This document shows, piece by piece, positions 4,353-34,026 of a stretch of 34,243 nucleotides of DNA. Below the pieces are notes generated by a model that was not told the origin of the DNA, made no database searches, and saw only the letters and a list, made by a program, of their open reading frames with translations. The stretch is from assembly GCA_029935325.1 (NCBI GenBank), contig JAOZKO010000001.1, positions 1-34,243 of the forward strand, written 5' to 3'. Position numbers and translations under genes: made by a program. The DNA comes from Bacteroidales bacterium (GTDB lineage: Bacteria > Bacteroidota > Bacteroidia > Bacteroidales > UBA1556). Each line of letters opens with the position of its first letter. Position 1 is the stretch's first letter.

Positions 4353-4360
4353 TAATTTTG
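4353..4360 (+). promoter_or_regulatory. Candidate -7 promoter box (TAATTTTG) for the PorW/SprE-like gene
   Basis: Matches TAnnTTTG and lies 49 bp upstream of the in-frame TTG at 4409. It overlaps the TTG that the ORF track used as start. Confidence 0.35.
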
Positions 4361-4408
4361 TCTTTTATCTGTTTATTGATAACAATAACTTTAGAATTCG
4401 TTAAACTG

Positions 4409-14814: not shown

Positions 14815-15939
14815 TCAATTCTTCCTCCCCTTCCAGCCAACACCTATTAACAAGCCAAAGACTCCCACAAAAACAATAAAGAAAGGATAGATAATCTCTA
14901 GAAGCAAAAGGTTTTTTAGAATACCTTTTTTATCAAAAAACCTTGCTGCGGATAATAGTATTGGTAGATCTATTATTGTTTTCAAAATAAAGAGTGCAAT
15001 AGGTAAATACCAAAACTCACCAATAAAACTTATAAGAATAAGTGATGCCAATATCAAAATATTAAAGCCTAGGATAATGATAGCTGTAAGGCTAGTATAA
15101 TTAATTTTATAATGCTTTGCTTTGGATGTCCAGCGGAATCGTTGTTGTAACCAATCATTTAGACTTTTTGGAGCAGGAGTTTCTACAATTGCATCTTGGT
15201 CTTTTAAAAAGTAAATTTCATCCTCGCCATAATTATTCACCACATAATGCATTAAAAAAATATCATCACCAGAAGCGATATCACTTTCATATATTTCGCC
15301 AAGTGCTTCTATTGCCATTCTTCTATCAAAAAGCAGATTTGCAGCATTAAGCATTATAGGTTTTCTAATTCCCATAGCTCCGGCACCACTTGCTACCAAA
15401 CTCATAAACTCAATATCCATAAACTGACCCCAGAGTGTGCGTTTTGATATAAAACTAATTGGACCAGCAATCATCTTTGCCTTTCGCTGATGCAATGCTT
15501 GATTGTATGATAATAGTAATTTGTTTGGAACTCGACAGTCGGCATCTAAAGTAAGAATAAACTCATTAGTTGCAATGGAAAGAGCTTCTTTTATGGCATG
15601 TTTCTTTCCTCCTTGGCTTGATAAAAGCTTCCAATTACAATTATTAGTTATAATGAAGTTAGAAATTATTTGATAAGAGGAGTCTGTGGATTCATCATCT
15701 ACCAATAGAATTTCAAAATTTGAAGAAGGATATTCTAATGCGCTTAGGTCGTTTAATAAATTAGGTAGATTTTCAGCTTCATTTCTTAAAGCTATTATTA
15801 TTGAAAAGCTATTGCTTAATATTTTGGTTTCGCTTACTTTTTGTTCCTTGGTTTTGTTCCATCCGTAGGTAAATGACAGAATTGTCAATGCGTAAAGCAA
15901 TGAAAAAACTATTAGCAATATTAAAAAGCTAAGCCACAT
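14815..15939 (-). CDS. Membrane-bound family 2 glycosyltransferase
   Basis: 374 aa. An N-terminal TM helix is followed by a GT2 core (FSIIIALRNEAENL, LLVDDESTDSS, TLDADC, QRFRW-type motif QQRFRWTSK) and C-terminal TM helices. Confidence 0.7.
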   Translation of the reverse strand: MWLSFLILLIVFSLLYALTILSFTYGWNKTKEQKVSETKILSNSFSIIIALRNEAENLPNLLNDLSALEYPSSNFEILLVDDESTDSSYQIISNFIITNNCNWKLLSSQGGKKHAIKEALSIATNEFILTLDADCRVPNKLLLSYNQALHQRKAKMIAGPISFISKRTLWGQFMDIEFMSLVASGAGAMGIRKPIMLNAANLLFDRRMAIEALGEIYESDIASGDDIFLMHYVVNNYGEDEIYFLKDQDAIVETPAPKSLNDWLQQRFRWTSKAKHYKINYTSLTAIIILGFNILILASLILISFIGEFWYLPIALFILKTIIDLPILLSAARFFDKKGILKNLLLLEIIYPFFIVFVGVFGLLIGVGWKGRKN

Positions 15940-16942
15940 TATTGGATTCTTTAGATTTGAAAAACCTTAAATCTTTGATAAATAACAGACCGAGCATTGC
16001 GGGTAAGATAATGTTAATCAGCCAGATTATGGTAGAGGCTGTAAATATTGCATTATCGGATTGAGTATCGAATCCATAGTAAAGCCCAAAGACAAAAATA
16101 GCAACTGAACCACGAATACCAATTTCTAGCAGAGCAATGCTTGGGCGAATTGTATTTAAAAGAAAAATAGCAGAAACTATGCTCATACCTGTGAATAGTG
16201 ATAAATCAGTAAATCCAACTGCCACTAAAATAATATAGTATTGCAAGCTAAAGACTCCATACCTTAGGATGCTTATTAAAAGCGTTATAGATAATTGTTT
16301 GAATGAATATTTTCTAAAAATGTCAACATATTTATGTGTTTTCTTCCATTTTGATGGGAAGATACCCGAGAGTAATGAAATGCGGAAATATAATACTACC
16401 ACAATGGCTAGGGATATAAAGAATAGATTTTGGAATATCGCCAATTGATTTTGAGAAATATACTCATAAGTAACCATATTTGGAGCAAAAAGGCTGAAGA
16501 AAGCTATTCCACCAAATAGTAAAGTTGTAATGGTTTGAGCATAGCTACCTATTAAAGTAATAAATACTCCTTCCCAAAATGTGGTTTTCTTAAGAACGAA
16601 CACACGACCAAAATAATCACCCGTTCGATTGGGGCTGACAGCACTAATTGTTGCGCCACTCAAAACAGCTTTGATGGCGGTACTAAAGCTTATGATTTCT
16701 TTGGTTTTAATTATATATTTCCACTTTATAGCTTCCAACGACCAGTTTATAGGCATTAGTGCAAGGCAAATTAGGATTAAATACAATAAACCATCGGTAT
16801 TAAAAATGCTTTTTATGTCTGAAATCATTAGGCTAAAATCCTGTTTAATAAAAAGTTGATGCGACAAGAAAGCCAAAGAAGTAATTATTATAATACTTCT
16901 AATGATTATATTGTAGGTTTTGTATAACTTTGTTCTCTTCAT
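15929..16942 (-). CDS. UPF0104 / lysylphosphatidylglycerol-synthase-TM-region-like (flippase-like) integral membrane protein
   Basis: 337 aa, polytopic throughout (about 8 hydrophobic helices). Its stop overlaps the start of the downstream GT2 gene by 11 bp. The family assignment is by architecture and the GT2 pairing only. Confidence 0.5.
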
Positions 16943-17517
16943 ACAGCAAAGCCGAAATTTTGAGTAAAGATAGAATTATATTAGGAATTGACCCAGGAAC
17001 CACTGTAATGGGTTATGGATTAATTCAGCAAAAAGGCAATCAAATTGAATTGCTTAGCCTTGGCGTGGTAAAATTAAACAAACTTAGCAACCATGCGCTA
17101 AAATTGCAAAAGATTTTTAAAAGAACATTATCTTTAATTGATGAGTACCATCCTGATGAGATGGCCATTGAAGCGCAGTTTTTTGGAAAGAATGTGCAGT
17201 CGATGCTTAAACTCGGTAGAGCTCAGGGTGTTGCAATTGCTGCAGCACTTTCCAGAGACATTGCATATACCGAGTATGAACCCAAAAAGATTAAAAAAGC
17301 AGTAACAGGAAATGGCAATGCATCCAAGGAGCAAGTGGCTGCAATGTTGAAAAGTATTATCGGTTTAAAGAAAGTTCCAGACTTATTGGACGCTACAGAT
17401 GCCTTGGCAACGGCTGTTTGTCATTATTATCAACGCAAACCTGGTTTGGAACAGAAATCATATGGTAGCTGGAAGGCTTTTTTGGGAGATAACCCTGATA
17501 GATTAAAAAAGAAATAA
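16930..17517 (+). CDS. ruvC: Crossover junction endodeoxyribonuclease RuvC
   Basis: [14 protein letters not shown] (catalytic Asp segment), [12 protein letters not shown] and [12 protein letters not shown] are typical of RuvC. The track start is TTG 16930. An in-frame TTG at 16960 ([13 protein letters not shown]) is an equally plausible start. Confidence 0.9.
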
Positions 17518-19240: not shown

Positions 19241-19642
19241 CTAGAGACTATTAAACTCAATAGAAATTCTAGAGGCAATTTCTTCAAATTCTTCTGCTTC
19301 AAAACTAAGTTTCTTTTTACTAAAATCCATATCATAAATTGTATTAATGGGGATAATATGAATGTGAGCATGAGGTACTTCCAAGCCAATAACCGTAATT
19401 CCTATTCTTTTACAAGGAATAACTTTTTCAACAGCTAGGCCTACTTTCTTTGCAAATTTCCATAAGTCAGCATATAGTTTATCTTCTGCGTCAAGAATAT
19501 AATCTATCTCTTTTTTGGGAATCACTAAGGTATGTCCTTTTGCTAAAGGATTTATGTCTAAAAAGGCATAAAAGTCTTCAGTTTCAGCTATTTTATAGGA
19601 AGGTATTTCTCCTGCGACAATTTTAGTAAAAATAGTACTCAT
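19241..19642 (-). CDS. HIT-family (histidine triad) nucleotide hydrolase
   Basis: 133 aa with histidine triad HAHIHIIP and an N-terminal IFTKIVAGEIPSYK segment. There is a 3-bp gap after greA. Confidence 0.9.
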   Translation of the reverse strand: MSTIFTKIVAGEIPSYKIAETEDFYAFLDINPLAKGHTLVIPKKEIDYILDAEDKLYADLWKFAKKVGLAVEKVIPCKRIGITVIGLEVPHAHIHIIPINTIYDMDFSKKKLSFEAEEFEEIASRISIEFNSL

Positions 19643-19645
19643 AAT

Positions 19646-20119
19646 TTAGCGCTCTATTTTAGTAATTTCAAAATTAAGGATTCCTGCAGGTACTTTAATA
19701 TCCACAATATCACCCACTGATTTACCAAGTATTCCTTGAGCAATTGGTGAGCTTACAGAAATTTTTCCTTTTTTCAAATCAGCTTCTTTTTCAGGTACTA
19801 AAGTATAAACCATTTCCTTTTTGGAAGAAGTATTTTTGATAGTTACTTTTGATAATAATAAAGCTTTACTTATATCTATTTTTGATTCATCAATTAAGCG
19901 AGCATTTTGAACTATATCCTGTAGTTTAGCTATCTTCATTTCAAGTAATCCTTGAGCATCTTTTGCAGCATCATATTCTGCATTTTCCGATAAATCACCT
20001 TTATCTCTTGCCTCTCCTATTTGTTGTGAGATTGCTGGACGTTGAACTGAAGTCAGTTCAATTAATTCTTCCTTCAGTCTCTCCATTCCTTCTTCCGAAA
20101 AGTATTGTACGTTTGCCAT
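19646..20119 (-). CDS. greA: Transcription elongation factor GreA
   Basis: 157 aa. The N-terminal coiled coil has GDLSENAEYDAAK, and the C-terminal domain has SPIAQGILGKSVGD. Confidence 0.9.
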   Translation of the reverse strand: MANVQYFSEEGMERLKEELIELTSVQRPAISQQIGEARDKGDLSENAEYDAAKDAQGLLEMKIAKLQDIVQNARLIDESKIDISKALLLSKVTIKNTSSKKEMVYTLVPEKEADLKKGKISVSSPIAQGILGKSVGDIVDIKVPAGILNFEITKIER

Positions 20120-20224: not shown

Positions 20225-20267
20225 TAATATAAAACAAATCAGAAGGTCGTATGACCTTCTGATTTGT
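20225..20267 (-). terminator. Rho-independent terminator closing the outer-membrane operon
   Basis: Perfect 15-bp stem (20234-20248 pairs with 20253-20267) and a 4-nt loop. The minus strand follows with TTTATATT. It lies 38 bp after the stop at 20305. Confidence 0.7.
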
Positions 20268-20304
20268 GGGTGCAAAAATAATAAAAATATTTTAATTACA
20301 TCAA

Positions 20305-21357
20305 TTATAGATGTAGTCGCACTCCTATACTGTGAGATCCTGCAAAAGGATTTGAGGATTGGTATGCATAATCAATTGAAAAGCCACCTTCTTCACCTTT
20401 TTTAAATGGTGCTCCAATAGAAACTCCTGCTGAGAAACCTGTAAGTGCTGTCATTCGCATGGCATCATCTAAAAGACCATTTTCATATACATAACCAGCT
20501 CGTAGAATTAGATATTTACTCCACTTAAACTCCATACCAACAGCATGCTGATCGTTGGTAAATGAGTTGGATGTAAATGTATATGCTGGTGTTAATGTAG
20601 ATTTATCATTTAGATAAAAATCATAGGAAGCTCCAATTCTAATTAGTGAAGGAAGTTCAAAACCTGCTGATCGCTGCTCTACAGTCATTGCGTTAGCTTG
20701 ACCAGGAACAAAACCTCTAAAAGACATTCCATCTCCAGTATATTTCATGTTTGGTCCAACATTCTTCAGCGCAACACCAAATTTAATTTGATCACGCTTT
20801 CCTGAGATATATTGAATTCCAGCATCAATAGCAACAGTTGAAGCCTTAGTATCAGAAGTTGATTCGCTGACTATTTTAACATTCACACCACCGTAAATAC
20901 TATTAGAAAATGATTTTGCATAGGATAAATTCACATTACTCTGCTTAGGAGAGAATGTTCCTATTCCACCTTCTGGCTGATCCACAGTTGTGATATCAAT
21001 ATCTCCATGTGAGATTGATACTACTGAAAGCCCTATTACACCACCATTTTCGCCTATTTTTTGGGTTAATCCAAATGCTGCAATATTTGTTCCACTACCT
21101 TTTAACCATGTGGTATTTGCAAATATAATTTCAGTTGAACGTGTATGTGCAGTACCTGCAACATTCAGAAATTGTGCTTCTAAACCTTGTGCATAAGCTG
21201 AATTTGCTCCTCCTAATCCACTACTTCTTGCCCATGGATTAATCAGAAGTTGACCAGCTCCGGCCTCTCCAGCACGATCCTTATTGCCTGCATAGCTTTC
21301 ACCTAATACAAGGGTTAGCACTAGGCTCATTATCAAAATTTTATATACTTTTCTCAT
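20305..21357 (-). CDS. PorV/PorQ-family-like outer membrane beta-barrel (FadL-like)
   Basis: The signal peptide is MRKVYKILIMSLVLTLVLGESYA. The N-terminal segment AGEAGAGQLLINPWARSSGLGGANSAYAQGLEAQFLNVAG follows the PorV/PorQ pattern (hydrophobic-LI..ARs.G.GG...A, then a NPAG-like turn). Alternating beta-strand character runs throughout, but the protein ends in GVRLHL rather than a terminal aromatic residue. No search was run. Confidence 0.5.
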   Translation of the reverse strand: MRKVYKILIMSLVLTLVLGESYAGNKDRAGEAGAGQLLINPWARSSGLGGANSAYAQGLEAQFLNVAGTAHTRSTEIIFANTTWLKGSGTNIAAFGLTQKIGENGGVIGLSVVSISHGDIDITTVDQPEGGIGTFSPKQSNVNLSYAKSFSNSIYGGVNVKIVSESTSDTKASTVAIDAGIQYISGKRDQIKFGVALKNVGPNMKYTGDGMSFRGFVPGQANAMTVEQRSAGFELPSLIRIGASYDFYLNDKSTLTPAYTFTSNSFTNDQHAVGMEFKWSKYLILRAGYVYENGLLDDAMRMTALTGFSAGVSIGAPFKKGEEGGFSIDYAYQSSNPFAGSHSIGVRLHL

Positions 21358-21384
21358 TATATGATATGTTTTTGATTTTCTTAA

Positions 21385-24300
21385 TTAAAATGCATTTAAA
21401 TCAACTGGGCGTAAAACGCCAAACCACTTAATAACTTTCTCCCCAATATTAGGAGCATCTATATGGATATAGTAAACTCCACTTGCGATTGGAATATTAG
21501 CAGCGTTCTTTAAATCCCAATCAAGATAAGTATCAGTCTCATCTTTCTTATATCGTCTAACCAATACTCCATTAGTAGAATATATACTGATAGTACAGCG
21601 CTCAGGAAGGTTTGTTATTCTTACTCTATTATCTAACTGATCTGTTTCGTAGGCTGAAAAAGCATAGTACGGATTAGGTACTGCACGTATTATATCTAAT
21701 GCGCTTTCTGCAGTTGCTAAATCACCTGTAATAGTTGCTATATTATCAGTATTAAATGAATATGCTGGGTAATTACTATTGTATTCGCTACTAGTTACTG
21801 TAGAATTTAATTTATTCCATATGGCTTTTTGGTAAGAATAATTAACTCGTAATCTTACCCATGCATCGTTTTGAAGCCATTCTTCACCTGCAACTGCCAT
21901 TGGAATACTTACCCACATTATTTCTCGGTGTACTTGCATTAAAGTAATACTATTTGGACTTCCTTTCAATTTACCATATAGCCACTTACCACTATCGTAA
22001 GCTGGACATCCATTTGTTTCAGGTGAGTGACGAAGAATATAAAGGAAGTGCTTACCACCCATTAGAGGTGAACCAAGATTGGTTGAATAATTTGAAGTTG
22101 GATTAAACTGCATATCACGTCCGTTTTCACCATTTAGCCATGATGATTCACCGTACATAATATTTAGTCTTTCGCCGCTTTCTACGCTAATTGCGTATCC
22201 AGGGAACCAACCCATACCTTTCTCAGCAATATAATTTGCTACATTTTCATTATTGGGGTCATCACCACTGCCATCAGCGGCAAACTTTCCGTCTTTGTCT
22301 ATGGAATTAGAAGCACGTAATTGGAATTTATTACGATTCCCCTCACTTACAACAGCATCATCACCAGTTTCTAATACTACACAGCGTGTCCATTTTGATT
22401 TGTCAGAAGTAAAAATAACATCAACACTTTCTGTTATAGAGATTTTATAGCTAGTATGAGTGGGAGTTCCTGCAGGTCCATTTTCAAATTTTGAAACTAA
22501 ACGATATGGAGCCCATGTTCCACCAATTAATTTTTCATAAATCTCATTAGGATCTATCCAACTAGTAGGGTCATAATCATTATGGAATGCCTTGGCATTA
22601 TCATCAACACTACCTGCCCTAATCCAGTTAAATGGACTTGGAGTACTAGGATCTAAATCAGGAGCACCATCAACATCAGGAAAGCCTGTAAGCCAACGAT
22701 GTGAACTATCTTGGTAAATTAATTCAGAAGAAATATAGCCATTGGTTTCAAGGTCAACATCTCCTGCTCCTTTATTTTGCTGAATCTGAATACTTAAACC
22801 TTCGTCAAGGAATAATTGCTCATTCCCAAGCTCAATTGTTGCATTTGAAGTAGTAATAGAATCTCCATTTTTATATAGTACCCAATTAGCAGTATCAATA
22901 CTACCTGCTGCTTCAAACTTTAATATATATTCAGCATTTTCTACATTTAGAGGGTCAATTACTTTAACATTAATTGGACCTGCTCCATTCATATATTCAA
23001 TCTTCTCAACTTGATTTTCAGCTATAATTCGCGCCTTAGTTGCGGGTGTTAATTCTAAATCCATTCCACCATTACCACGACCATCAAGACGTGTAATCAT
23101 AGGTCCTGTGCCAAATTCAGAATTTACAATTGTACCACTACCTTCTGGATTAGGAATATGTGGCATTAAAGTGTGAATTTTAATAGGGCCAATAGCTGAC
23201 TTACGCCCTGCTAAATACCTTCTTTTCTGTCCATATAGTCCGTTTAAAGTATTTGGATCTTGTGAATATGGCAGATAATTATTGTGAGAGTATGCTATTG
23301 CAACAAAATAATATTTCTTATTATTTACTAATCGTGGATTACCACTAGCAAATTCATCTTCAGTAATTTTAAATGAATGGCGAATTCCTTGATTTTCGGC
23401 TTCTACCTTTAATTCAGGAACATTACCACCAAGCTTTTCATTATATACATAATTAATAAGGTTCTCAACAGTATCTTTTAAATCACATTGTGCAATTATA
23501 CGTGCTTTGTCAGGATCATTCAAATCAGCCAAAGAAACTTCATCATTTGCTAATTGGTAAATTTGATATCCTTGGAAGTGATATAGAGGATCATAATTTG
23601 TTGTATCATTATTTAGAGCTGAAATAGTAACATCCTCTTCAGTATAATCCTCATTGGCATTATTTGAAGACTCAATATTCTTTAAATAAATAATAATAGT
23701 TTTATCTAATTCTTGTGCCAATATCTCAGGAGCATCAGGGCCATCAAGTACTTTAAAGCAGTTATCAAATAATGCTTGAGCTTTATCATCAACCTGACGT
23801 AATAAAGTAACTGAAGCAAAAGGACCTCCTGTAGAAGAGCGTGCCCAAGGAATACCAACAGTAATATAATTTATTGCACCAGATTCCAATGTAAATTCAC
23901 CAGCAGATTGCATAAATCGGCGATCACCAGGTGCATTGTTTGAGGTTTCTTCTGTCCATTTTTTAGGGCTAGGAGTTACTCCTCCTGTTCCCCAATCACA
24001 AGGGTCAGTTAAATCAGGAAACATAAAATCACATTCCGGACCACCAGTATTATGTGCATCACCACCATAGGTCATTCTTGTTCCATCTTTCCATATTCCA
24101 CGTAAAAATTGGTAATATTCTGGGGCTAATGTAGGGTCTTGAGTTGCTGATGTTCCAAATGGAGGTCTATTATGATAAACGAACTTTCTCATACCGAATC
24201 TTTCGTTGTCTATAATTGTATCGCCAAAGTTAACACCATTAATACTTTCATCACATATTTGATCGCCATTGGCATCGTATTTCGGATTGTCTATTCCATC

Positions 24301-25419
24301 ATTGTCCATATAAGGTCCTTGGAAAAAATCTACACCAATTGCAGGTGGCTGTGCACCATAATCTTGGGGTCTGCCTAAGCCATCAATAGCTGTTCCATTA
24401 TAGCAATAACCTAAACCACGTTGTACATCACAACCTACATAATCATCGTCAGAATAACCTAAATCAGTATCTACCCACTGACTAAAATATGTATTAGTTA
24501 ATCTAAATGTGGAGCGATTTATAATTTCATAAGTATAAAAGGTCATATTATTAATCTCATCATTGGTAGTAAAAGAAAAAGCTTGAGCTCTAATTTCAAC
24601 ACCAATAGCATTACCCTTTGTTTCAGAGTGTATATTGCCATTATCATTAAATACCCACCAAATTGTTTGGTCACCTTTAAGTACGGCATCAGCTAATATT
24701 CCACCTTCAGGAGTTTTTTCGTAGTAATAATCACCAGCGGCATTCTTTGTGGGCTTACATAATTTGTTTCCAATATCGTAATATGGGTATTCGCCTTGTT
24801 CCCATTCATATACGCCATTTCCATTCAAATCAACAAATGGAGCTAGCCATTGGCTTTGTCCTAAAGAAACATCACCATTTGCAGGCCAATCTTTAATAAT
24901 GTCTGGTACGGCATAATCTGGATAGTCTGAATTATTATATTTCAAAATAAAATTATCCACCTTTTCTCTAGTAATTACAAAGTGCTCATCGTACTCATCG
25001 CAAATTTCAGCAGTAATACTTGCTTTACCATCTACGGTTAAAGGTCCTGGCCAATAGTCATTTCCACTTCCTCGGTAACGCTGAAAGGCTCCTTTTAACT
25101 GGCCATTAACATCAGTGCCACCTAACCATAATGAGGCAGAGAACATTGATGTTTTGGATGAACCTCTGGGGATTTCATACTGAGCAAGACCTTGCAAATC
25201 CCACCACATATCGCCACCAGTATTTATACGAGCTCTAACATTGTTAAGGTTTAATTCAGTTGATGCTTTGGCAGGTAGGCAGCCTGCAGCACCTGTGCGT
25301 GTACTATTTGAACTAGTTCTAGCGCCACTTTTTACCCCTTGGATATTTCTAGCGAAAGTTACGCTAGAGATTAAGGAGGCGACTAATATTAGCGCGAATA
25401 TATTTATAAATCTCTTCAT
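21385..25419 (-). CDS. Large secreted protein of unknown function with T9SS-type C-terminal sorting domain
   Basis: 1344 aa. The signal peptide MKRFINIFALILVASLISSVTFA has no lipobox. There are Asp/Asn/Gly-rich loops. The last ~95 aa resemble a type-A T9SS CTD (AVPNPYY, CTISIYSTNGVLVRRY, IASGVYYIHIDAP, KVIKWFGVL). Confidence 0.6.
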   Translation of the reverse strand: MKRFINIFALILVASLISSVTFARNIQGVKSGARTSSNSTRTGAAGCLPAKASTELNLNNVRARINTGGDMWWDLQGLAQYEIPRGSSKTSMFSASLWLGGTDVNGQLKGAFQRYRGSGNDYWPGPLTVDGKASITAEICDEYDEHFVITREKVDNFILKYNNSDYPDYAVPDIIKDWPANGDVSLGQSQWLAPFVDLNGNGVYEWEQGEYPYYDIGNKLCKPTKNAAGDYYYEKTPEGGILADAVLKGDQTIWWVFNDNGNIHSETKGNAIGVEIRAQAFSFTTNDEINNMTFYTYEIINRSTFRLTNTYFSQWVDTDLGYSDDDYVGCDVQRGLGYCYNGTAIDGLGRPQDYGAQPPAIGVDFFQGPYMDNDGIDNPKYDANGDQICDESINGVNFGDTIIDNERFGMRKFVYHNRPPFGTSATQDPTLAPEYYQFLRGIWKDGTRMTYGGDAHNTGGPECDFMFPDLTDPCDWGTGGVTPSPKKWTEETSNNAPGDRRFMQSAGEFTLESGAINYITVGIPWARSSTGGPFASVTLLRQVDDKAQALFDNCFKVLDGPDAPEILAQELDKTIIIYLKNIESSNNANEDYTEEDVTISALNNDTTNYDPLYHFQGYQIYQLANDEVSLADLNDPDKARIIAQCDLKDTVENLINYVYNEKLGGNVPELKVEAENQGIRHSFKITEDEFASGNPRLVNNKKYYFVAIAYSHNNYLPYSQDPNTLNGLYGQKRRYLAGRKSAIGPIKIHTLMPHIPNPEGSGTIVNSEFGTGPMITRLDGRGNGGMDLELTPATKARIIAENQVEKIEYMNGAGPINVKVIDPLNVENAEYILKFEAAGSIDTANWVLYKNGDSITTSNATIELGNEQLFLDEGLSIQIQQNKGAGDVDLETNGYISSELIYQDSSHRWLTGFPDVDGAPDLDPSTPSPFNWIRAGSVDDNAKAFHNDYDPTSWIDPNEIYEKLIGGTWAPYRLVSKFENGPAGTPTHTSYKISITESVDVIFTSDKSKWTRCVVLETGDDAVVSEGNRNKFQLRASNSIDKDGKFAADGSGDDPNNENVANYIAEKGMGWFPGYAISVESGERLNIMYGESSWLNGENGRDMQFNPTSNYSTNLGSPLMGGKHFLYILRHSPETNGCPAYDSGKWLYGKLKGSPNSITLMQVHREIMWVSIPMAVAGEEWLQNDAWVRLRVNYSYQKAIWNKLNSTVTSSEYNSNYPAYSFNTDNIATITGDLATAESALDIIRAVPNPYYAFSAYETDQLDNRVRITNLPERCTISIYSTNGVLVRRYKKDETDTYLDWDLKNAANIPIASGVYYIHIDAPNIGEKVIKWFGVLRPVDLNAF

Positions 25420-25443
25420 AATTGAAATATTATTTGTTCCGTT

Positions 25444-28400
25444 TTAGAAGTTAAAGATTACACCGATTCTAATTCTTCGGGGTAAACTATAATTATAGGG
25501 ATTATTAATTTTTGTTGAATATAAGTCAATAAATGACTGTGGGTCATTCTTAGCATATATTGAAGACTGATGCTCTGCCGCTGATAAATATCCATCATCA
25601 TCAGGATTACCAGTATAACGATATACACCCATTACATTTCTTGAATCAAGGACATTAAGTACTTGTAGATATACATTTAAGTAATGGTAGTTTTTGCCCT
25701 TGCCTTTTAAGTATATATCACGGTCTAATTTCAAGTCCATTCTAAACTGCCATGGCAAACGAGAACCGTTTAGTGAACCATCTAATACAGGTTGTCCACC
25801 TCCGAGTAATGCACTAGTGATATTACTTTGGCGGCTATATGGCAAACCAGAACCTCCCATAAATGTAACATTAAGTCCAGTATTTTCTAAAATTCTAACT
25901 ACTTTAACCTTGTCAGTACCTTTTACTTTACGGGTAAATGTTGGTCCATTATATGCTTTCCCTCTACCATATCGGTAATCCGTAATTACATTAATAGTAT
26001 GGTTACGATCTTGATTAATTGGGCTTAGAGTACGTAGGTTAGGCTGTCCTGATGTTACTAAATTAATACCTGATGTAGCACTTGAACCAGTTGCATTAGC
26101 AAATTGTAAAGTATAGCTAACTTTTAACCAAAGGTTCTTAGTACGACGCAAGTCGTAAGCTAGGGTAACCCCCTTTGCAGTACCAAAGTCAATATTATTA
26201 TATGAAATATAAGAAACAGGATAAGCACTTGTATAACGGAATGCTTGAATCTGATCTCTAAACTCGCGATAGTAAGCTGAGAATTTTAATGATGATGATT
26301 TTGAAAGTTTCTGTTGGAAACCTAATTCATAATCGGTTGTTCTTTCAGGCTTAAGATTAGGGTTATTAATTACTCCATTTCCTACTTGATCAATAAAGTA
26401 GTAGTTAATCATAGGTATTCTATTATTTCCTGTTGGACGTGAAGTTAATACGTCGTAATGAGCAAAGAATAATGCTTCATCAGAAATAGGGAATGAGAAT
26501 GATATACGTGGAGAAATAGTATTTTGTGGAGTATAGTCTTCAAAAGCAGAAGGTTTTAACTCTTTTTCATCTGGATTAACTAGATAAGGAGCAATTCCTG
26601 ATGCAGTTTGTAATACAGTAGGATCAGAAATTTCAGTTCCCTGAGCATTGTACCAACGACTTCCGTCACGATAACCAACAATAGCAGTAGGATTATCAAT
26701 ATCGTTAACATATACTACATAATCTTCTTCCATATTACTAGGAATAGATCCTAAATTAGGATTGGTGATTTCTTTTACTGTTTTAGCTTCAGAGAATAAA
26801 AACGGGTCTTTAAGTACTTTCTGGTTTGCATCAAAGCGGTCGAAACGTACACCTATTGTGAAAATCAAATCTTTGAAAGCAAATTTATCTTGAATATAAC
26901 CTGCCATATAAATTGGCTCATAAGCTCCTACAGTCCTAGTATAATTACCATCACTATTAATCTCATTAAAGAAATCTTCAAAAGCTGGTTTACCTTCAAT
27001 TTTGTTTCCATAAGGATCATATCCATAATAGAAAACATAAGGACTACCACTATTTAGTAACTCATCAACACTAAACATATCAACACTAAAAGTTGAAGGG
27101 TCATAACTATCTAAATCTATCCACTCTAATCCATCAACTGGTAAGCCTAGCTTTGTTCTTAGTTGTTTATCAAAATAAGCTTGTGTATTACCATCATATA
27201 AGCGGTTATACTCAATAGTATCCTGAAAAATACCTGAAGCATCACTTATAAGAATAGGATTAGCAAAATCTAATTGCTCAATATGACGGTTAGTAATACC
27301 TCTCATAAGAGTCCATAGTCCTGCAGGATTATATCCATAACCAGTTTCTTTTCGTTGCTCGTATTGGATACCAAATTGAATTTCGTGATTTCCAATATCA
27401 GCAGAACCATTTGCATTAATTCCGAAACGAGAATTGTCGAAATTACTAAATGCATTATAAGGAGTGCCTGTATTGGCATATAAACCATAAACATTTTCGG
27501 GAAATTGACCATTAAGCAATGCTCCACCATTTTGAACAGTTAATGCGTTTCTATAAAAACGATCATCTTCATAAAGATTGTAATATTGGTCAGTATAATT
27601 ACTTAGGTTTGGATTTATTTCTGATCTTTCAAAAGCATATAGAGTATCGAGGAAACCGTTTTGTACATATACATTGTTTAATCCTGTTACGGTATCTTCT
27701 CCAAGCTCATAGGACTTAACTGAATGTGTAGTAAATTTACCAACATATCCATAATTAAAAATATTGTCACCATGTAGTGGGTTATATGTTTTTGCTGTTG
27801 TTCTAGAGTAGTCGGCTTGAATACTATAATAAACATTTTTTACAACTGATCTACTATCTTTAGCGGTAGGGAAACGCTGTGTAAACTTACCATAAACACG
27901 CCAAGTATTATTAATACGTTCACCATTATTCTCAGGATTATATAAGGTGTTACTCATTGACCATAATGAGCGTTTTCCCCAAATAAACTGACCACCAAAA
28001 GTAAGATTAGTATTATCAGTAGTACGCACATCAATTTTTCCAGAGAAATTAGCACTCATTGATTCTGCATTTATCCGAGTATGGTTATTAACCAAATCAT
28101 CAGAATAAACATATTCTGAATTAGGGAATGAACCAAAGCCAGTTCCTGAAGGACGTACTGGATTATTTCTAAGATATTCTAGTTTTTCATCATTTACCTG
28201 ATAAGTACCTATAGAAGCAGGAGAGCCATCTCTATTATAATTACCCTCACCAGATATAAAGAAACCTAGAAGTGAAGTAGATTTTGTAGAGTCTTTGCCT
28301 TTAATAAGTGGCCCTTGTACACTAAATCCAATAAGATTGTAACCATATCCATCAAGTAATTCGGAAGTAACAACTTCAACTCCGGCACCAAAAGTACGAG

Positions 28401-29079
28401 AAGGCCCTTTGGTAGTAATATTTATAATACCACCTGTAAGGTCACCGTACATTACGGGTGTACCACCAGTAATAACAGCTACCTGATCGATTGCTGCTTG
28501 GGGCAATGTTGCTGATCCAATAACACGAACACCGTCAATATATGTAGCAGTACCACCTGATCGTTGACCACGCATACCACCCATATTGCCATTTTCATCG
28601 GAGAATACACCACCAACAGTTACAGCAACTGCCTCGGCTGAACGCCCTGGCATTTGTGCAATTTCCTCTGAGGTCATTGTTCCACCAGTAGAAGTTTCAT
28701 CTTTGTCAATTAAAGGTACTCTATATTCAAATACCTCGAAAACATCTAAGTCTGTTGCGGAAGATTCTAACTCAATATCTAAAAAGCGAATCTTGTTAGC
28801 ATTAATTAGTACACCTTTGTATAATTTCTTTTTGTAACCAACATATGATATCTTCACATCATACTTTCCTGGTTGAATCGGCTTGATTTTGTAGTTTCCC
28901 TCAAAGTCAGTTGTTCCACCATTGACTACTTTTCCTCCTAATTCTACCACCACGTTGGCAAAGGGAATAGGTTCTTTGGATACTCCATCGGTAACTTTTC
29001 CTTGTAATGTTCCGGATTGTGCATTTGCAAATACAGTAATCAACAAGATCATACTTGTTAAAAGTAAATTTCGAATCAT
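25444..29079 (-). CDS. Oversized TonB-dependent-receptor-type outer membrane protein (CarboxypepD_reg domain, plug, beta-barrel)
   Basis: The ORF is open from ATG 29148. ATG 29079 gives the signal peptide MIRNLLLTSMILLITVFANAQ. It has a CarboxypepD_reg-like sandwich (GTLQGKVTDGVSKEPIPFANVVV...GKYDVKISYVGYKK) and plug motifs (MRGQRSGGTATYIDGVRV, GGIINITTKGP). It ends in IRIGVIFNF, a terminal aromatic. Confidence 0.8.
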   Translation of the reverse strand: MIRNLLLTSMILLITVFANAQSGTLQGKVTDGVSKEPIPFANVVVELGGKVVNGGTTDFEGNYKIKPIQPGKYDVKISYVGYKKKLYKGVLINANKIRFLDIELESSATDLDVFEVFEYRVPLIDKDETSTGGTMTSEEIAQMPGRSAEAVAVTVGGVFSDENGNMGGMRGQRSGGTATYIDGVRVIGSATLPQAAIDQVAVITGGTPVMYGDLTGGIINITTKGPSRTFGAGVEVVTSELLDGYGYNLIGFSVQGPLIKGKDSTKSTSLLGFFISGEGNYNRDGSPASIGTYQVNDEKLEYLRNNPVRPSGTGFGSFPNSEYVYSDDLVNNHTRINAESMSANFSGKIDVRTTDNTNLTFGGQFIWGKRSLWSMSNTLYNPENNGERINNTWRVYGKFTQRFPTAKDSRSVVKNVYYSIQADYSRTTAKTYNPLHGDNIFNYGYVGKFTTHSVKSYELGEDTVTGLNNVYVQNGFLDTLYAFERSEINPNLSNYTDQYYNLYEDDRFYRNALTVQNGGALLNGQFPENVYGLYANTGTPYNAFSNFDNSRFGINANGSADIGNHEIQFGIQYEQRKETGYGYNPAGLWTLMRGITNRHIEQLDFANPILISDASGIFQDTIEYNRLYDGNTQAYFDKQLRTKLGLPVDGLEWIDLDSYDPSTFSVDMFSVDELLNSGSPYVFYYGYDPYGNKIEGKPAFEDFFNEINSDGNYTRTVGAYEPIYMAGYIQDKFAFKDLIFTIGVRFDRFDANQKVLKDPFLFSEAKTVKEITNPNLGSIPSNMEEDYVVYVNDIDNPTAIVGYRDGSRWYNAQGTEISDPTVLQTASGIAPYLVNPDEKELKPSAFEDYTPQNTISPRISFSFPISDEALFFAHYDVLTSRPTGNNRIPMINYYFIDQVGNGVINNPNLKPERTTDYELGFQQKLSKSSSLKFSAYYREFRDQIQAFRYTSAYPVSYISYNNIDFGTAKGVTLAYDLRRTKNLWLKVSYTLQFANATGSSATSGINLVTSGQPNLRTLSPINQDRNHTINVITDYRYGRGKAYNGPTFTRKVKGTDKVKVVRILENTGLNVTFMGGSGLPYSRQSNITSALLGGGQPVLDGSLNGSRLPWQFRMDLKLDRDIYLKGKGKNYHYLNVYLQVLNVLDSRNVMGVYRYTGNPDDDGYLSAAEHQSSIYAKNDPQSFIDLYSTKINNPYNYSLPRRIRIGVIFNF

Positions 29080-29174
29080 AGATTTAATATTTATATATTT
29101 ATAATTCCTGTGCGTTTTTAAAGGGCTCAAAAATAGAAAAAAATTCATTGGGTTTAACTAATTTTAACATCCAC

Positions 29175-29630
29175 CTAATTCTTTATGTATGGAGGGTTTA
29201 AAATAGCATCATATATGATAGCATCTTGTGGGTTGAAAACAAAATTATCCATAATGTTTTCCTCCTTTACTATTGAATAGGCAGCCTGTTTTTTATGTCT
29301 GTTTTTTAGGCTTATATTATCATCATATTCAATGCTATATGATGCACTATCCAATACTTTTTTATCTTCTATTATTTCATCTTCCTCTTCTATATATTCT
29401 TCATTATAATATTCGGTTTCAACTGCAGGAATAACTTTTTCTTCTCCAAAAAAAGTTTTAATAAAATCGTCTAATTTCTCCTCTGTATTGCCTCTTTTTG
29501 GAGTTTTTAACGGTCTTTCTTGAGCATTCCTTTGCTCAATAACGGGGTCAAGCCTTTTTTTCGTTGTTTTCTTGTATTGTTTATAAATCAAAAAAACTAT
29601 TCCAAGTATAATAGGTAAAAGATTTTCCAT
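29175..29630 (-). CDS. Small N-terminally anchored, highly charged hypothetical protein
   Basis: The ORF is open from TTG 29657. ATG 29630 gives MENLLPIILGIVFLIYKQYKK (TM anchor), then a Lys/Glu-rich region (EEYIEEEDEIIEDKK). I recognise no family. Confidence 0.45.
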   Translation of the reverse strand: MENLLPIILGIVFLIYKQYKKTTKKRLDPVIEQRNAQERPLKTPKRGNTEEKLDDFIKTFFGEEKVIPAVETEYYNEEYIEEEDEIIEDKKVLDSASYSIEYDDNISLKNRHKKQAAYSIVKEENIMDNFVFNPQDAIIYDAILNPPYIKN

Positions 29631-29670
29631 GCATAACGGTTTTGAAATTGTGTGCAATTATTTCAGAGGT

Positions 29671-29678
29671 CAAATATA
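29671..29678 (-). promoter_or_regulatory. Candidate -7 promoter box (TATATTTG) for the outer-membrane operon
   Basis: Plus strand caaatata is TATATTTG on the minus strand, 41 bp upstream of ATG 29630. Confidence 0.4.
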
Positions 29679-30050: not shown

Positions 30051-30809
30051 TTATTTCCCTTCATTCACTCCCATACCAAAAAGGGCAAAATCATATTTTA
30101 TAGGGTCGGAGGAATCAAGCTGTTTCAGATTATTTGTAAGTTCTACTACCGCTTTCCAATCATTTTGCTTGCGACTTAAAAGTCCTAGCTCTCTTCCCAT
30201 TCTAGCACTATGGGTATCTAATGGAATAAGTAGTGATTCTGCTTTTAATGATTTCCAGATTCCAAAATCCACTCCTTTTTCATCGGAGCGAACCATCCAT
30301 CTTAGAAACATATTTATACGTTTTGCGGCAGAGCCTTTTTCTGGATTTGCCACATGCTTTTCGCTTCTTTGCAAATGCGGTGTTTCAAAAAATACTTTTC
30401 GGAAGTGGATAATGCTCTCTTTCATATTTGTAGGATGCTCGGAGAAAAGAGGCTCCAATCCACCATGGTTTTTGTAGATGTTCTGAAGCGAATACATAAA
30501 GAACAAACAATCGTCACCATTGAAAGTGCGGTAAATGAAATCCGAAAATCGAGCGAAGTCTTTGTCGGGAGCCTGCATTATAAAATTGTAAGGCTGCCAA
30601 TCCATAAGCTCCATCCAAAGTTTAGCTTTTTTTATAATCTGAGGCCTTTGCCCCCAAGCAAGAGTTGCTGCTATAAAACCTGATATTTCAATGTCTTCCT
30701 TTTTGGAAAAGGCTCTAGGAATTTGAATAGGATCAGTCTCAATAAATTGTGGCTGCTGATATAATGCTGCCTTTGCATTCAGTATTTCAATAGTTTCTTG
30801 TGCTATCAT
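30051..30809 (-). CDS. TIGR02757-family (DUF2400) protein, cytoplasmic, function unknown
   Basis: 252 aa with no signal peptide. The N-terminal segment FIETDPIQIPRAFSKKEDIEISGFIAATLAWGQRPQIIKKA matches my recollection of the TIGR02757/DUF2400 family. Confidence 0.6.
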   Translation of the reverse strand: MIAQETIEILNAKAALYQQPQFIETDPIQIPRAFSKKEDIEISGFIAATLAWGQRPQIIKKAKLWMELMDWQPYNFIMQAPDKDFARFSDFIYRTFNGDDCLFFMYSLQNIYKNHGGLEPLFSEHPTNMKESIIHFRKVFFETPHLQRSEKHVANPEKGSAAKRINMFLRWMVRSDEKGVDFGIWKSLKAESLLIPLDTHSARMGRELGLLSRKQNDWKAVVELTNNLKQLDSSDPIKYDFALFGMGVNEGK

Positions 30810-30811
30810 AC

Positions 30812-31621
30812 TTACTTTGCAATATATGTCATTATTGAGCGTGTTTGTGCTGTAAATACTCCAATGGCATCTCCTTCAATATTACTAACAGGATTTCCTG
30901 GTGCAGCACTAAATCCACCACCACCTATATTTTGGCTAAGGACTTTATAATATTCAAAGGAGGCTTCGTCCATAGTAAGAAGACTTATATGTATTGTATC
31001 CAATGGATTAATGGGTATTTGAAAAAATGGAAATGCAATTTGGTCGCCATCTTGTCCGTCGTCACGGCTAATATACAAACTAGAATAGTAGGCTTTATTT
31101 ACAGATATTTTAAGCCTATAATAGTTTTTCTCACCGGGAATATCAGTGAAAAAACATACTGCCGTTAAATGGTCTTTTCCATGTGGACCAAACCCTAATG
31201 CATAGGCTCCAATGGAGTCTATTTTAACCATTTGAGGTAGTATTGATTTGCTGCTTATTTCTGTGCCTTCAATGCTCCCAGATAGCTCATACTCATCAAA
31301 ACTGGAACCCATAGGGATAAGAGGATTCCTAAACTGACCTTTGCCATAATAGTCTAAATGATAAGTATTGCCTGCTTTATCATTAATAAATAAGTCAGCA
31401 TCAGAAATAGTGTCAAATTCGTTACTTGTATAATAACTGCCTGTTCTTGTTAGCTTTACAAATGCATTTAGATGTGTAGAATCATAATGGGAATAGCTTA
31501 TTACTCCGTCTATTACAATACGTTGGTTAGCATCATTCAAATCCACATCAATTACTTTGGTGCAAGAGGCTAGGATTACTAATAGGCTAAAGGCTAGTAT
31601 TTTATTAAGTTTAATTTTCAT
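30812..31621 (-). CDS. DUF4249-family outer membrane lipoprotein
   Basis: Lipoprotein signal MKIKLNKILAFSLLVILASC. The ~270-aa size, the start CTKVIDVDLNDANQRIVIDGVIS and the position 3 bp after a ~790-aa TonB-dependent receptor gene are the usual DUF4249 context. Confidence 0.6.
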   Translation of the reverse strand: MKIKLNKILAFSLLVILASCTKVIDVDLNDANQRIVIDGVISYSHYDSTHLNAFVKLTRTGSYYTSNEFDTISDADLFINDKAGNTYHLDYYGKGQFRNPLIPMGSSFDEYELSGSIEGTEISSKSILPQMVKIDSIGAYALGFGPHGKDHLTAVCFFTDIPGEKNYYRLKISVNKAYYSSLYISRDDGQDGDQIAFPFFQIPINPLDTIHISLLTMDEASFEYYKVLSQNIGGGGFSAAPGNPVSNIEGDAIGVFTAQTRSIMTYIAK

Positions 31622-31624
31622 AAT

Positions 31625-33997
31625 CTAAAATTTAAAATTATAAGTAAGAGATGGAACAAATCTAAAAAGAGCCAATTGCACTGCTTCAGTTACATTTGGA
31701 TCATCTTCACTTACCTGAAACGATATTGAATAAGCATTCTCGCGTCCGTAAGCATTATAAACGGAGAAATTCCAGCTAGAAAGAAATTTCTTAGGAATCC
31801 TTTCCTTAATACCTGTTGCGGGATTTACTTTATATTTATATTTTTTCCCATACCAATTTACCCCAATATCAAGGCGGTGGTAGGCAGGCATTCTATATCC
31901 GTTTCTCTCAGTATAATAGTTTATTACCATACCATCAATTTCATATTTTCCGGAAGGGAAAGTAACGGCACTTCCTGTATAATACACCCAAGTAGCTGCC
32001 ACATTTAGCCTTTCTGAAATATCATACATACCAACAATTGATATATCATGCGTTCTGTCCTGACGTGCTGGATACCAGCTATTGGAATTTATTTCTTCAA
32101 ATTGCTTTTCTACCTTTGATAAGGTATATGATACCCATCCGCTAAGTTTGCCAATTCGCTTTTTTAATAATAGCTCTAAACCATAAGCCCTACCATGGCC
32201 GTATAATAAATCGCCTTCCACCAATGGATTGAAATTTACCTCAGCACCAGTACGGTAATCAATGCTATTTTGAATAATCTTATAATATATTTCCCCTGAA
32301 AACTCGAAGGTGTTTTTTCTAAAATTCCTGAAATATCCTAATGCAATTTGGTCGGCTATTTCGGGTTTAATATTATTAGAGCTAGGGAGCCAAATATCTG
32401 TAGGAGTACTACTTGTAGAGTTTGAAACTAAATGCAAATATTGATATGTACGAGCATAAGATGCTTTTACTGAGCTTTTTGGATTGATAATATATAGCAT
32501 GCTAAGTCGAGGCGCTAATCCATTATATGATGCTACTGTTTCTCCCTTTTCGTAATATTTTGAATCCGATACATCACCATCATCATCAAATGAATATATA
32601 GTTCCTGGTCCGATTTGAGTAAAGTTTGAATATCTTAATCCATAGGTTAAATGAAAGAATTTAGTAATCTTTTGCTCATTGGAGATATATAACGCACTTT
32701 CGATACTGTATCTCTTCTCTAATGTATTGTCAAGCTGAACTTCGCCATCAACTTTTACATCTCCTGGCGAAAAAGTATGGTGAATAATATTACCACCAAA
32801 GCTTAATTTGTTTTTACTATTAATAAAGTATTGCAGGTCCTCCTTTAAGTTGAAATCCAAAATATCAGAACCTGCCTCAATGGTTTTGTCATTAAATGTT
32901 GCTTTAAACACATAATTATAGTCACTATATAATAAGGTGGTGTTTGAGAATAATTTATCACTAAAAAGGTGATTCCATCTTAATGTAGCGGTTTTGTTTC
33001 CCCAATCAAATCCAAAGGTATTATCAAAACCGAACTTATCTCTACCGAAATATCCTGATAAATAAATCCTATCTTTTTTCGATACCTGATAGTTTGCCTT
33101 TAGGTTTAGGTCATAGAAATATAGGGTGCTATTTTGCTGTGTTTCGTTTGGTGAGAAGGCTAAAAACATATCGGCATAAGTTCTTCGGCCGCTAATAATA
33201 AATGAGCCTTTGTCTTTTACAATAGGTCCCTCTAAACTTAGTTTTGATGCAATAATCCCGATTCCACCACTGGCATGATAAGATTTATTATTTCCTTCCT
33301 TCATTTTTATATCCATTACAGAAGATAGGCGGCCACCATATTGAGCAGGCATTCCTCCTTTATATAGTTTAACATCTTTAAGGGCATCCGAATTAAAAAC
33401 AGAGAAAAAGCCCATCATATGCGATGCATTATATACCGGTGCTTCGTCCAGTAATATTAGGTTCTGATCGGCACTACCACCTCTAACAAAAAAACCTGCA
33501 CCGCCATCGCCTTCACTCTTAATTCCAGGAAGCAGCTGAATGGTTTTCATAACATCTTTCTCACCAAAGATTACAGGTATTTTTTCAACTTCTTTTATGG
33601 TGACTTTGCTAACACTCATCTCAGGACTGGTGACATTAGCATCAGATCTTTCTCCAGTAATTTCAACTCCCTGAAGTTGTTGTGATGAAGGTGTAAGCTC
33701 AATATTCTTTTGATAATTTTTATCCAGCTTAATTTTCATGGTTTTTTTTTCAAAACCTATAAATGAGTACAGAAGAGTATAGTCTCCTTCTGGAAGGCTC
33801 AATGAATAAAACCCATAAACGTTTGTAACTGCGCCAATACTTGGAAGTTCTTTAACTAATAACATAGCACCTATTAAATCTTCCCCACTGCTTCCGTCTT
33901 TAATAGTACCACTAATTGTATATTCTTTAGCGGTTTGACTAAAAGATGAGAAGGCAATAAGAATAAAAAATAGACTTAAAAGTATTTGTATTTTCAT
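31625..33997 (-). CDS. TonB-dependent receptor (CarboxypepD_reg domain, plug, barrel)
   Basis: The ORF is open from TTG 34009. ATG 33997 gives the signal peptide MKIQILLSLFFILIAFSSFSQT. It has a CarboxypepD_reg segment (YTISGTIKDGSSGEDLIGAMLLV...GDYTLLYSFIGFEKK) and plug motifs (FVRGGSADQNLILLDEAPVYN). It ends in SLTYNFKF. Confidence 0.85.
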   Translation of the reverse strand: MKIQILLSLFFILIAFSSFSQTAKEYTISGTIKDGSSGEDLIGAMLLVKELPSIGAVTNVYGFYSLSLPEGDYTLLYSFIGFEKKTMKIKLDKNYQKNIELTPSSQQLQGVEITGERSDANVTSPEMSVSKVTIKEVEKIPVIFGEKDVMKTIQLLPGIKSEGDGGAGFFVRGGSADQNLILLDEAPVYNASHMMGFFSVFNSDALKDVKLYKGGMPAQYGGRLSSVMDIKMKEGNNKSYHASGGIGIIASKLSLEGPIVKDKGSFIISGRRTYADMFLAFSPNETQQNSTLYFYDLNLKANYQVSKKDRIYLSGYFGRDKFGFDNTFGFDWGNKTATLRWNHLFSDKLFSNTTLLYSDYNYVFKATFNDKTIEAGSDILDFNLKEDLQYFINSKNKLSFGGNIIHHTFSPGDVKVDGEVQLDNTLEKRYSIESALYISNEQKITKFFHLTYGLRYSNFTQIGPGTIYSFDDDGDVSDSKYYEKGETVASYNGLAPRLSMLYIINPKSSVKASYARTYQYLHLVSNSTSSTPTDIWLPSSNNIKPEIADQIALGYFRNFRKNTFEFSGEIYYKIIQNSIDYRTGAEVNFNPLVEGDLLYGHGRAYGLELLLKKRIGKLSGWVSYTLSKVEKQFEEINSNSWYPARQDRTHDISIVGMYDISERLNVAATWVYYTGSAVTFPSGKYEIDGMVINYYTERNGYRMPAYHRLDIGVNWYGKKYKYKVNPATGIKERIPKKFLSSWNFSVYNAYGRENAYSISFQVSEDDPNVTEAVQLALFRFVPSLTYNFKF

Positions 33998-34026
33998 TAG
34001 AGTATTCAATATTAAAATAATTTTGG

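Follow-up and report, generated by a model that had tools for sequence, protein, structure and literature searches.

In the T9SS (type IX secretion system), PorU and PorZ are substrates whose tails stay uncleaved and which are seated on the outer-membrane barrels PorV and PorQ, with a proposed role for PorQ in collecting PorZ from the translocon (PMC10947112). Cargo proteins of type B use private PorP-like barrels as anchors, and in SprB-SprF and PG1035-PorP, which carry this type of C-terminal domain, the T9SS cargo is encoded beside its private outer-membrane barrel (PMC9143113). Barrels of the TonB-receptor type are also connected with this machinery: PorF of Porphyromonas gingivalis is needed for T9SS function, in a role that is unknown (PMC12704123, PMC5445135), and PorV of Cytophaga hutchinsonii pulls down CHU_1606, a PorF-like TonB-type receptor (PMC8564354). 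This pull-down sets a precedent for contact between a barrel of the PorV family and one of the TonB type. We analysed a stretch of 34,243 nucleotides from a Bacteroidales bacterium (GTDB lineage UBA1556; contig JAOZKO010000001.1 of assembly GCA_029935325.1, positions 1 to 34,243), hereafter the window, in which three genes of the minus strand encode, in the order of transcription, a TonB-type receptor, a secreted protein of 1344 aa (the cargo) and a PorV/PorQ-family barrel of 350 aa. We refer to these three genes as the trio. An earlier note, made from the sequence of the window, had proposed that they form an outer-membrane machine in which the surface partner of a TonB-type channel is a T9SS cargo with its own barrel.

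The trio shares something with each of the described systems and departs from all of them. As in PorZ-PorQ and PorU-PorV of P. gingivalis, a T9SS-exported protein is combined with a barrel of the PorV/PorQ family, the cargo tail being most similar to that of PorZ and weakly similar to that of PorU, and the cargo gene is followed by the barrel gene as in porU-porV. Unlike in these two pairs, however, the cargo has a body unrelated to PorU or PorZ, its barrel scores below the cut-offs of both equivalog models and the operon includes a TonB-type receptor; the retention of the tail and its binding to the barrel are presumed. As in the SusC/SusD pairs and the pairs of TonB-dependent transporters (TBDTs) with DUF4249 proteins, a receptor made of CarboxypepD_reg, Plug and barrel domains is encoded beside a surface-exposed partner. 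In contrast to SusD and DUF4249 proteins, this partner has 1344 aa, lacks a lipobox and any SusD or DUF4249 match, is routed through the T9SS and has its own barrel; the receptor likewise differs from SusC/RagA in having no match to their signature. The likeness to SprB-SprF and PG1035-PorP is in the adjacency of a T9SS cargo and a private barrel, whereas the barrel of the trio is of the PorV/PorQ rather than the PorP/SprF family and the tail is of a different type. Finally, PorF (PG0534) and CHU_1606 are TonB-receptor-type barrels linked functionally or physically to the T9SS and PorV, but they are of about 91 kDa as against about 135 kDa for the receptor described here, and the likeness, drawn from descriptions, is at the level of the general family. 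The types of part are thus all known, and it is their combination and the cargo family that are undescribed: we found no published description of the module in the literature on PorV/PorQ-like paralogs and on T9SS-TonB pairs.

The three genes are inherited together. Our main set consisted of the 80 best loci (85 loci in some counts), mostly from metagenome-assembled genomes (MAGs) of Bacteroidales and Lentimicrobiaceae. The receptor gene was located 5' of the cargo gene in 79 of the 80 loci and the barrel gene 3' of it in all 80, with median gaps of 36 bp between receptor and cargo and 35 bp between cargo and barrel. Conservation of the three proteins was similar, identities to the window copies ranging from 47 to 74% for the receptor (orthologs in 79/80 loci), from 44 to 70% for the cargo and from 41 to 77% for the barrel (80/80). 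The order of the trio was also intact in Flavobacteriales, both in the cultured isolate Halocola ammonii and in a MAG with a 3.5-Mb contig, as well as in Chitinophagales and in a MAG labelled Sphingobacteriales. A profile check identified the barrels of all five of these distant loci, and the receptors of the three loci labelled Chitinophagales or Sphingobacteriales, as orthologous. Downstream of the barrel we found greA in 75 of the 80 loci (median gap, 107 bp) and a HIT-family gene in 74; greA followed the trio in all four orders, and HIT followed greA everywhere except in the Sphingobacteriales-labelled MAG (loci L083, L084, L086, L087 and L088). Beyond this five-gene receptor-cargo-barrel-greA-HIT block the genes differ between orders. 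The synteny that the earlier note had put forward as a test of its proposal is therefore much wider than expected, extending over four orders. Taken together, these results show three known protein types, co-inherited and packaged in an operon-like manner, and we are confident that receptor, cargo and barrel form one functional module.

We then considered how the cargo reaches the surface. It has a Sec signal peptide and no lipobox, in keeping with its first description as a secreted non-lipoprotein, and its last 110 residues or so make up a T9SS C-terminal domain. In the window copy this domain scored 17.6-21.6 bits on the generic T9SS models, just under the cut-off of 23; all 16 relatives tested matched TIGR04183 at E<=0.1 (best 6.7e-7), so that the T9SS-like end that had been noticed on the window protein is borne out by its family. 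The PorZ model fitted better than the generic sorting-domain model: the last 150 aa matched the tail of the PorZ equivalog NF052228 (positions 657-750 of 757) at E 2e-9 to 4e-8. A weak match to the tail of PorU (NF033707, positions 983-1079 of 1095) was obtained at E ~3e-3, and the best PDB match of a tail-only profile was PorZ (5m11, residues 687-746; E 0.008). These likenesses are confined to the tail. No Peptidase_C25 match and no caspase-like fold match was found in the body, NF033707 and NF052228 were each matched in the tail alone, and the predicted fold of the body is a beta-sandwich, not a propeller. The 1344-aa protein is very probably a T9SS substrate. Its tail has a mean pairwise identity of 0.72, the same as the best-conserved region of the body and above that of the whole body (0.61), which is unusual for a disposable signal, and the C-terminal sequence KWFGxLRPVDLNAF hardly varies, even from one order to another. 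Since the tail is most like that of PorZ, which is of the retained kind, this supports its staying on a barrel.

The candidate for that barrel is the 350-aa protein. The PorV/PorQ pattern first recognized at its N-terminus held for the protein as a whole: it scored 148 bits on the PorV/PorQ subfamily model NF033709 (cut-off 90), and its profile matched the solved PorV of F. johnsoniae (6h3i_F) at E 2.2e-14 in a PDB search, with weak matches to TodX/TbuX of the FadL family. It remained below the equivalog models of PorV (NF033710; 67.5 bits vs 250), PorQ (NF033711; 75.4 vs 220) and PorV2 (NF052325; 41.3 vs 325) and below the PorP model (30.6 bits vs 90.55). The 23 orthologs tested behaved in the same way, all matching NF033709 strongly (best E 8e-48) and the PorV, PorQ and PorV2 equivalogs weakly (best E 7e-26 to 2e-17, that of PorV being 7e-26). 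Judged by these models, the barrel is a FadL-like member of the PorV/PorQ family that belongs to a distinct orthologous group and is not a PorV, PorQ or PorV2 equivalog.

Such a barrel could nevertheless be what these organisms use as their general PorV (or PorQ), located here by chance, with the cargo being an ordinary T9SS protein that is cleaved. Its membership of the PorV family would fit, as would the fact that no second PorV-family gene was seen in the 85 loci or in the window, each locus spanning only about 20 kb. We consider this explanation very unlikely, on evidence that is indirect. The equivalog scores are low in the window copy and in its 23 orthologs alike, and identity to the solved PorV is about 20-25%, as estimated from the alignment. 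On the same contig PorW reached 680 bits on its own equivalog model (cut-off 250), which argues that the T9SS of this organism is not generally divergent. Moreover, the barrel accompanies one and the same cargo across four orders, and the tail of this cargo is conserved to a degree not expected of a signal that is thrown away. On balance, the barrel is thus probably a dedicated anchor of the cargo.

The receptor has the plug and barrel domains of a TonB-dependent transporter. From the N-terminus, its parts are a signal peptide, a CarboxypepD_reg domain (residues 47-127 in the numbering of the long open reading frame (ORF), which is used throughout for these domains; 58.5 bits), a TonB-box-like stretch, a Plug domain (residues 157-240; 27.8 bits vs a cut-off of 23.9) and a large barrel ending in ...IFNF (PF00593, residues 519-1061; 49.5 bits vs 27). 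The three Pfam domains exceed their cut-offs, and the designation of the protein as a plug-containing TonB-dependent-type barrel was therefore appropriate. The TonB-box-like stretch, FEVxDYKVPLID, is located at the expected position between the N-terminal domain and the plug, and its P, L, I and D are invariant. Of the two possible starts, relatives keep ATG 29079, from which a typical signal peptide (MIRNLLL...) is read. No SusC/RagA or siderophore-receptor equivalog was found among the NCBIfam matches at E<=0.01, and a PDB search with the receptor profile gave matches restricted to structures of the N-terminal domain. The profile checks that the earlier note had called for all turned out as it had predicted.

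A TonB-type barrel could also work outward and export or assemble the 1344-aa protein, in the manner of Oar with the protease PopC in Myxococcus; the requirement of a TonB-dependent transporter for protein secretion is documented (PMC6434023), and the receptor is of unusually large size and diverges from every transporter of solved structure. This seems highly improbable, for the cargo already has a genuine export domain of the T9SS, parts of this system (PorW) are present in the genome, and there is no other sign of export.

The cargo's body matches no Pfam or NCBIfam family, and outside the tail the protein has no sequence match in the PDB. The family itself is large: one search gave at least 5750 relatives, a single-sequence query retrieved 7362 clusters at 50% identity, 2215 of which were below 1e-30, and a scan of one genome per species gave at least 596 confirmed matches. 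These relatives are named in databases only as "T9SS type A sorting domain-containing" or as "hypothetical". An AlphaFold2 model of residues 46-1245 had a predicted local distance difference test score (pLDDT) of 76 and was mostly beta, its N-terminal half being mediocre, and a fold search with the whole chain gave no PDB match at E<1e-3. For residues 46-600 a deeper alignment (103 sequences) raised the pLDDT to 88.7, with a predicted template modelling score (pTM) of 0.88. The modelled N-terminal region forms a large beta-supersandwich, in which Asp, Asn and Cys residues are invariant at many positions, and the clusters of invariant Asp and Asn suggest calcium sites. Its best Foldseek matches were non-catalytic N-terminal beta-sandwich domains of a glycoside hydrolase (GH) family 15-like dextran dextrinase and of GH94, GH116 and GH63 proteins. 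These matches are weak (E 3e-5 to 1e-3, template modelling (TM) scores 0.2-0.33, 7-11% identity); the model thus gives at most a hint of carbohydrate association. No function of the cargo was derived from these matches to glycoside hydrolases and phosphorylases, which are too weak for it.

Members of the family of 1500-1700 aa (P0237, P0247, P0438, P0440, P0449, and locus L088, 8001-12632) have Big_9/Ig, cadherin-like or BNR/Sortilin-like inserts. These are located in the middle or towards the C-terminus, the N-terminal region and the tail being constant. When the long relatives were considered as a source of further functional domains, just these Ig, cadherin-like and BNR inserts were recovered. 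A solo paralog of the cargo (L085, 10001-14176) was present in the same Flavobacteriales MAG as locus L084, beside a UvrD-like helicase and efflux genes.

The size of the cargo and its beta-rich, multi-domain build, together with the adhesin-like inserts of some relatives, would suit a surface element of structural, adhesive or envelope-stabilising function, made of the cargo and its barrel, with the receptor being merely an operon neighbour of long standing. The solo paralog, which has no receptor, agrees with such an element, as does the absence of any enzyme-like family or close fold relative for the cargo in Pfam, NCBIfam and the PDB. What makes it quite unlikely is the constancy of the receptor, which is kept beside the cargo in every order examined, across gaps of about 35 bp with almost no internal terminators, while from order to order the genes around the block are otherwise rearranged, and which is conserved to a similar extent as the cargo and the barrel.

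We therefore returned to the trio as a whole. The reading that we put forward, tentatively and with a little less than even confidence, is that it constitutes a co-transcribed outer-membrane module, in which a T9SS-delivered surface capture partner is held on a PorV/PorQ-like barrel and serves a TonB-gated import channel. The cargo would cross the inner membrane through Sec and the outer membrane through the T9SS by means of its PorZ/PorU-type C-terminal domain. The tail, left uncleaved, would then stay on the co-encoded PorV/PorQ-like barrel, presumably of 14 strands, which would collect the cargo at the translocon and hold it on the surface. There, the putative calcium-rich beta-sandwich ectodomain would contact the adjacent TonB-energised gated barrel and capture for it a ligand, possibly a glycan, to be imported. 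The cargo would in this way take the role that SusD-like or DUF4249 lipoproteins play for other Bacteroidota transporters.

Several points weigh against this proposal. The mutual contact of the three proteins is one that we infer, and the fold similarity of the N-terminal region of the cargo is weak (TM <=0.33). We found no clue to a substrate and no riboswitch; beside the trio, neither an enzyme nor a regulator nor an inner-membrane transporter is conserved. The solo paralog of the cargo has neither a receptor nor a PorV-like barrel nearby. To our knowledge, no TonB-dependent transporter has a T9SS cargo as its partner. In addition, housekeeping genes surround the module, and its conservation greatly exceeds that of typical loci for nutrient uptake; a structural or machinery role fits this setting at least as well.

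In such a machinery role, the trio would be an accessory part of the T9SS or of its attachment apparatus: a third component-cargo on its own PorV/PorQ barrel, with a PorF-like receptor that handles, for instance, the attachment glycan or lipid. Its core-genome position, high conservation and presence in four T9SS-bearing orders are more in keeping with machinery than with a nutrient locus. The tail of the cargo is most like those of PorZ and PorU, and its barrel is within the PorV/PorQ family. Furthermore, PorF, which is of the TonB-receptor type, is needed by the T9SS (PMC12704123, PMC5445135), and a PorF-like receptor co-purifies with PorV (PMC8564354). Against these likenesses, outside its tail the cargo resembles neither PorU, having no C25 peptidase, nor PorZ, having no beta-propellers, and a receptor of about 135 kDa with a clear plug differs from the PorF type of about 91 kDa (PMC5445135, PMC8564354). 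No such component is named in the T9SS literature that we searched. Cultured and model carriers were judged among the best 120 matches of each search, and the named ones included one cultured species and no model T9SS organism. On this evidence we regard an accessory T9SS role as unlikely, if less so than the other alternatives.

Coming back to the capture partner on its barrel, a bolder form of the proposal would make the trio an ancient, phylum-wide machine of new architecture, with a housekeeping function in the envelope rather than one for a niche nutrient, in which a T9SS cargo is the permanent surface subunit of a TonB-gated barrel and is kept on its private PorV/PorQ-type barrel by an uncleaved sorting domain; we hold this to be doubtful. 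Such a machine would add a third pair of cargo and barrel to the two known ones and would connect type IX secretion with TonB-dependent transport for the first time. The cargo family, with more than 7000 clusters at 50% identity and several hundred species-level genomes, has neither a Pfam or NCBIfam model for its body nor a close structural relative. Over at least four orders of Bacteroidota it stays locked to two outer-membrane barrels; gene order as stable as this usually marks a machine. If the trio assembles, the use of PorV/PorQ-type barrels to retain selected T9SS cargo at the surface would be general and not limited to the attachment complex, and TonB-type channels of this phylum would gain a second route to a surface partner besides lipoprotein export. 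Assembly would also bear on the unexplained role of PorF. The cultured carrier Halocola ammonii makes the module testable.

Looking at the transcription signals, we asked which genes belong to the unit. All four same-strand ORFs of the earlier note, a small acidic protein followed by the trio, were found where it had placed them, with gaps of 26 or 95 bp from the small gene to the receptor, according to whether its long or its short start is taken, of 24 bp from receptor to cargo and of 27 bp from cargo to barrel. The box that it had reported upstream of the first ATG is present as TATATTTG at 29678-29671. The motif TAnnTTTG is however not enriched in the window (64 found vs about 50 expected), and the TATATTTG box alone is thus weak evidence of a promoter. 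A conserved promoter-like leader lies directly 5' of the receptor. In 67 of 71 loci TAnnTTT[GA] was found 53-65 nt 5' of the receptor's ATG, and the element AACATAAA, like (C)TAACATAAA, was present with at most one mismatch in 62 of the 71, nearly always 17-19 nt from this ATG. This leader is retained from Bacteroidales to Flavobacteriales and might act as a promoter combined with an element for translation or for a regulator. A search of the window and of 7 loci for a riboswitch or other RNA 5' of the receptor, which might have pointed to the substrate, gave no Rfam match. A leader hairpin, with TAACATA pairing with TATGTTA over the start codon, was dropped when RNAalifold gave no consensus structure.

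At the other end, the perfect hairpin with a T-rich tail that had been noticed after the barrel is present and exceptionally stable (-23.1 kcal/mol, z = -9.55; equalled by none of 200 shuffles). Between barrel and greA, 52 of 75 loci have a strong hairpin followed by a T-rich tail, as against 1 of 71 and 1 of 56 for the two gaps inside the trio. With a leader 5' of the receptor, a terminator after the barrel and almost none inside, the conserved unit is the trio. The four genes together are probably not one conserved unit; of the single transcription unit first proposed, the bracketing of the trio by leader and terminator stands and the inclusion of the small gene does not. The adjacency of the trio and greA is kept across four orders, with the terminator between the barrel and greA.

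The small protein consists of an N-terminal transmembrane helix, an acidic, low-complexity and fast-evolving linker and a conserved C-terminal motif, FDLRKAVIYSEILxRPY. By the positive-inside rule, the acidic tail would be cytoplasmic, given the basic KQYKKTTKKR stretch that follows the helix. It has no Pfam or NCBIfam match. A profile built from 49 loci matched the window copy at E=8e-19 and detected the protein in 56 of 85 loci, as compared with 1 of 80 by tblastn, the shortfall being partly due to truncated contigs. With this profile it was undetected in related gut Bacteroidales MAGs that keep the trio, and the gene is absent 5' of the receptor in the gut MAG L069, by direct inspection, and in two Flavobacteriales loci. 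A role as fourth core subunit was ruled out, whole lineages in which the protein was undetected having the trio. The small gene, counted in the earlier note as the first of the unit, is thus a lineage-restricted neighbour, separated from the receptor by the leader.

The coordinates of all features are given in Table 1.

Table 1. Features of the trio locus and of neighbouring genes, in positions of the window
Feature	Position	Strand	Remarks
TonB-type receptor	25444-29079	-	1211 aa; long ORF 25444-29148
Large secreted protein (cargo)	21385-25419	-	1344 aa
Most conserved cargo region	23740-25284	-	residues 46-560; mean pairwise identity 0.72
T9SS C-terminal domain of cargo	21385-21714	-	residues 1236-1344; PorZ/PorU-like
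PorV/PorQ-family barrel	20305-21357	-	350 aa
Promoter-like leader of the trio	29090-29135	-	TATTTTTG (29135-29128), then GCACA, then a degenerate A-rich (C)TAACATAAA copy
Intrinsic terminator	20234-20267	-	perfect 15-bp stem, T-rich tail; between barrel and greA
Small membrane protein	29175-29630	-	151 aa from ATG 29630; longer ORF 29175-29657 from TTG
TATATTTG box	29671-29678	-	40 nt before small-gene ATG 29630
greA	19646-20119	-	downstream of barrel and terminator
HIT-family gene	19241-19642	-	after greA
DUF2400/TIGR02757 protein	30051-30809	-	upstream transporter set
DUF4249 protein	30812-31621	-	partner of the 794-aa receptor
CarbopepD_reg+Plug+barrel receptor	31625-34009	-	794 aa; TBDT of a classical TBDT+DUF4249 pair (30812-34009)
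PorW/SprE	4358-7069	+	equivalog model

The PorW-like gene from which the presence of a T9SS had been deduced (4409-7069) is a PorW/SprE equivalog, its longest ORF starting from a TTG at 4358, and no other T9SS core gene is present on the contig. Just upstream of the module, the window carries a second transporter set of the classical kind (30051-34009, minus strand). In 35-38 related loci there are upstream ORFs that are alike in position and in size (about 829 aa and about 249 aa); profiles made from them did not match the 794-aa and 252-aa proteins of the window. Downstream of greA-HIT, both the window (14815-17517) and the distant Bacteroidales contig L081 (16038-18738) have ruvC, a membrane protein of 337-347 aa, which in L081 is an LPG_synthase_TM protein, and a family-2 glycosyltransferase. 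As these genes are common to the two contigs, the region belongs to the core genome and is not an island.

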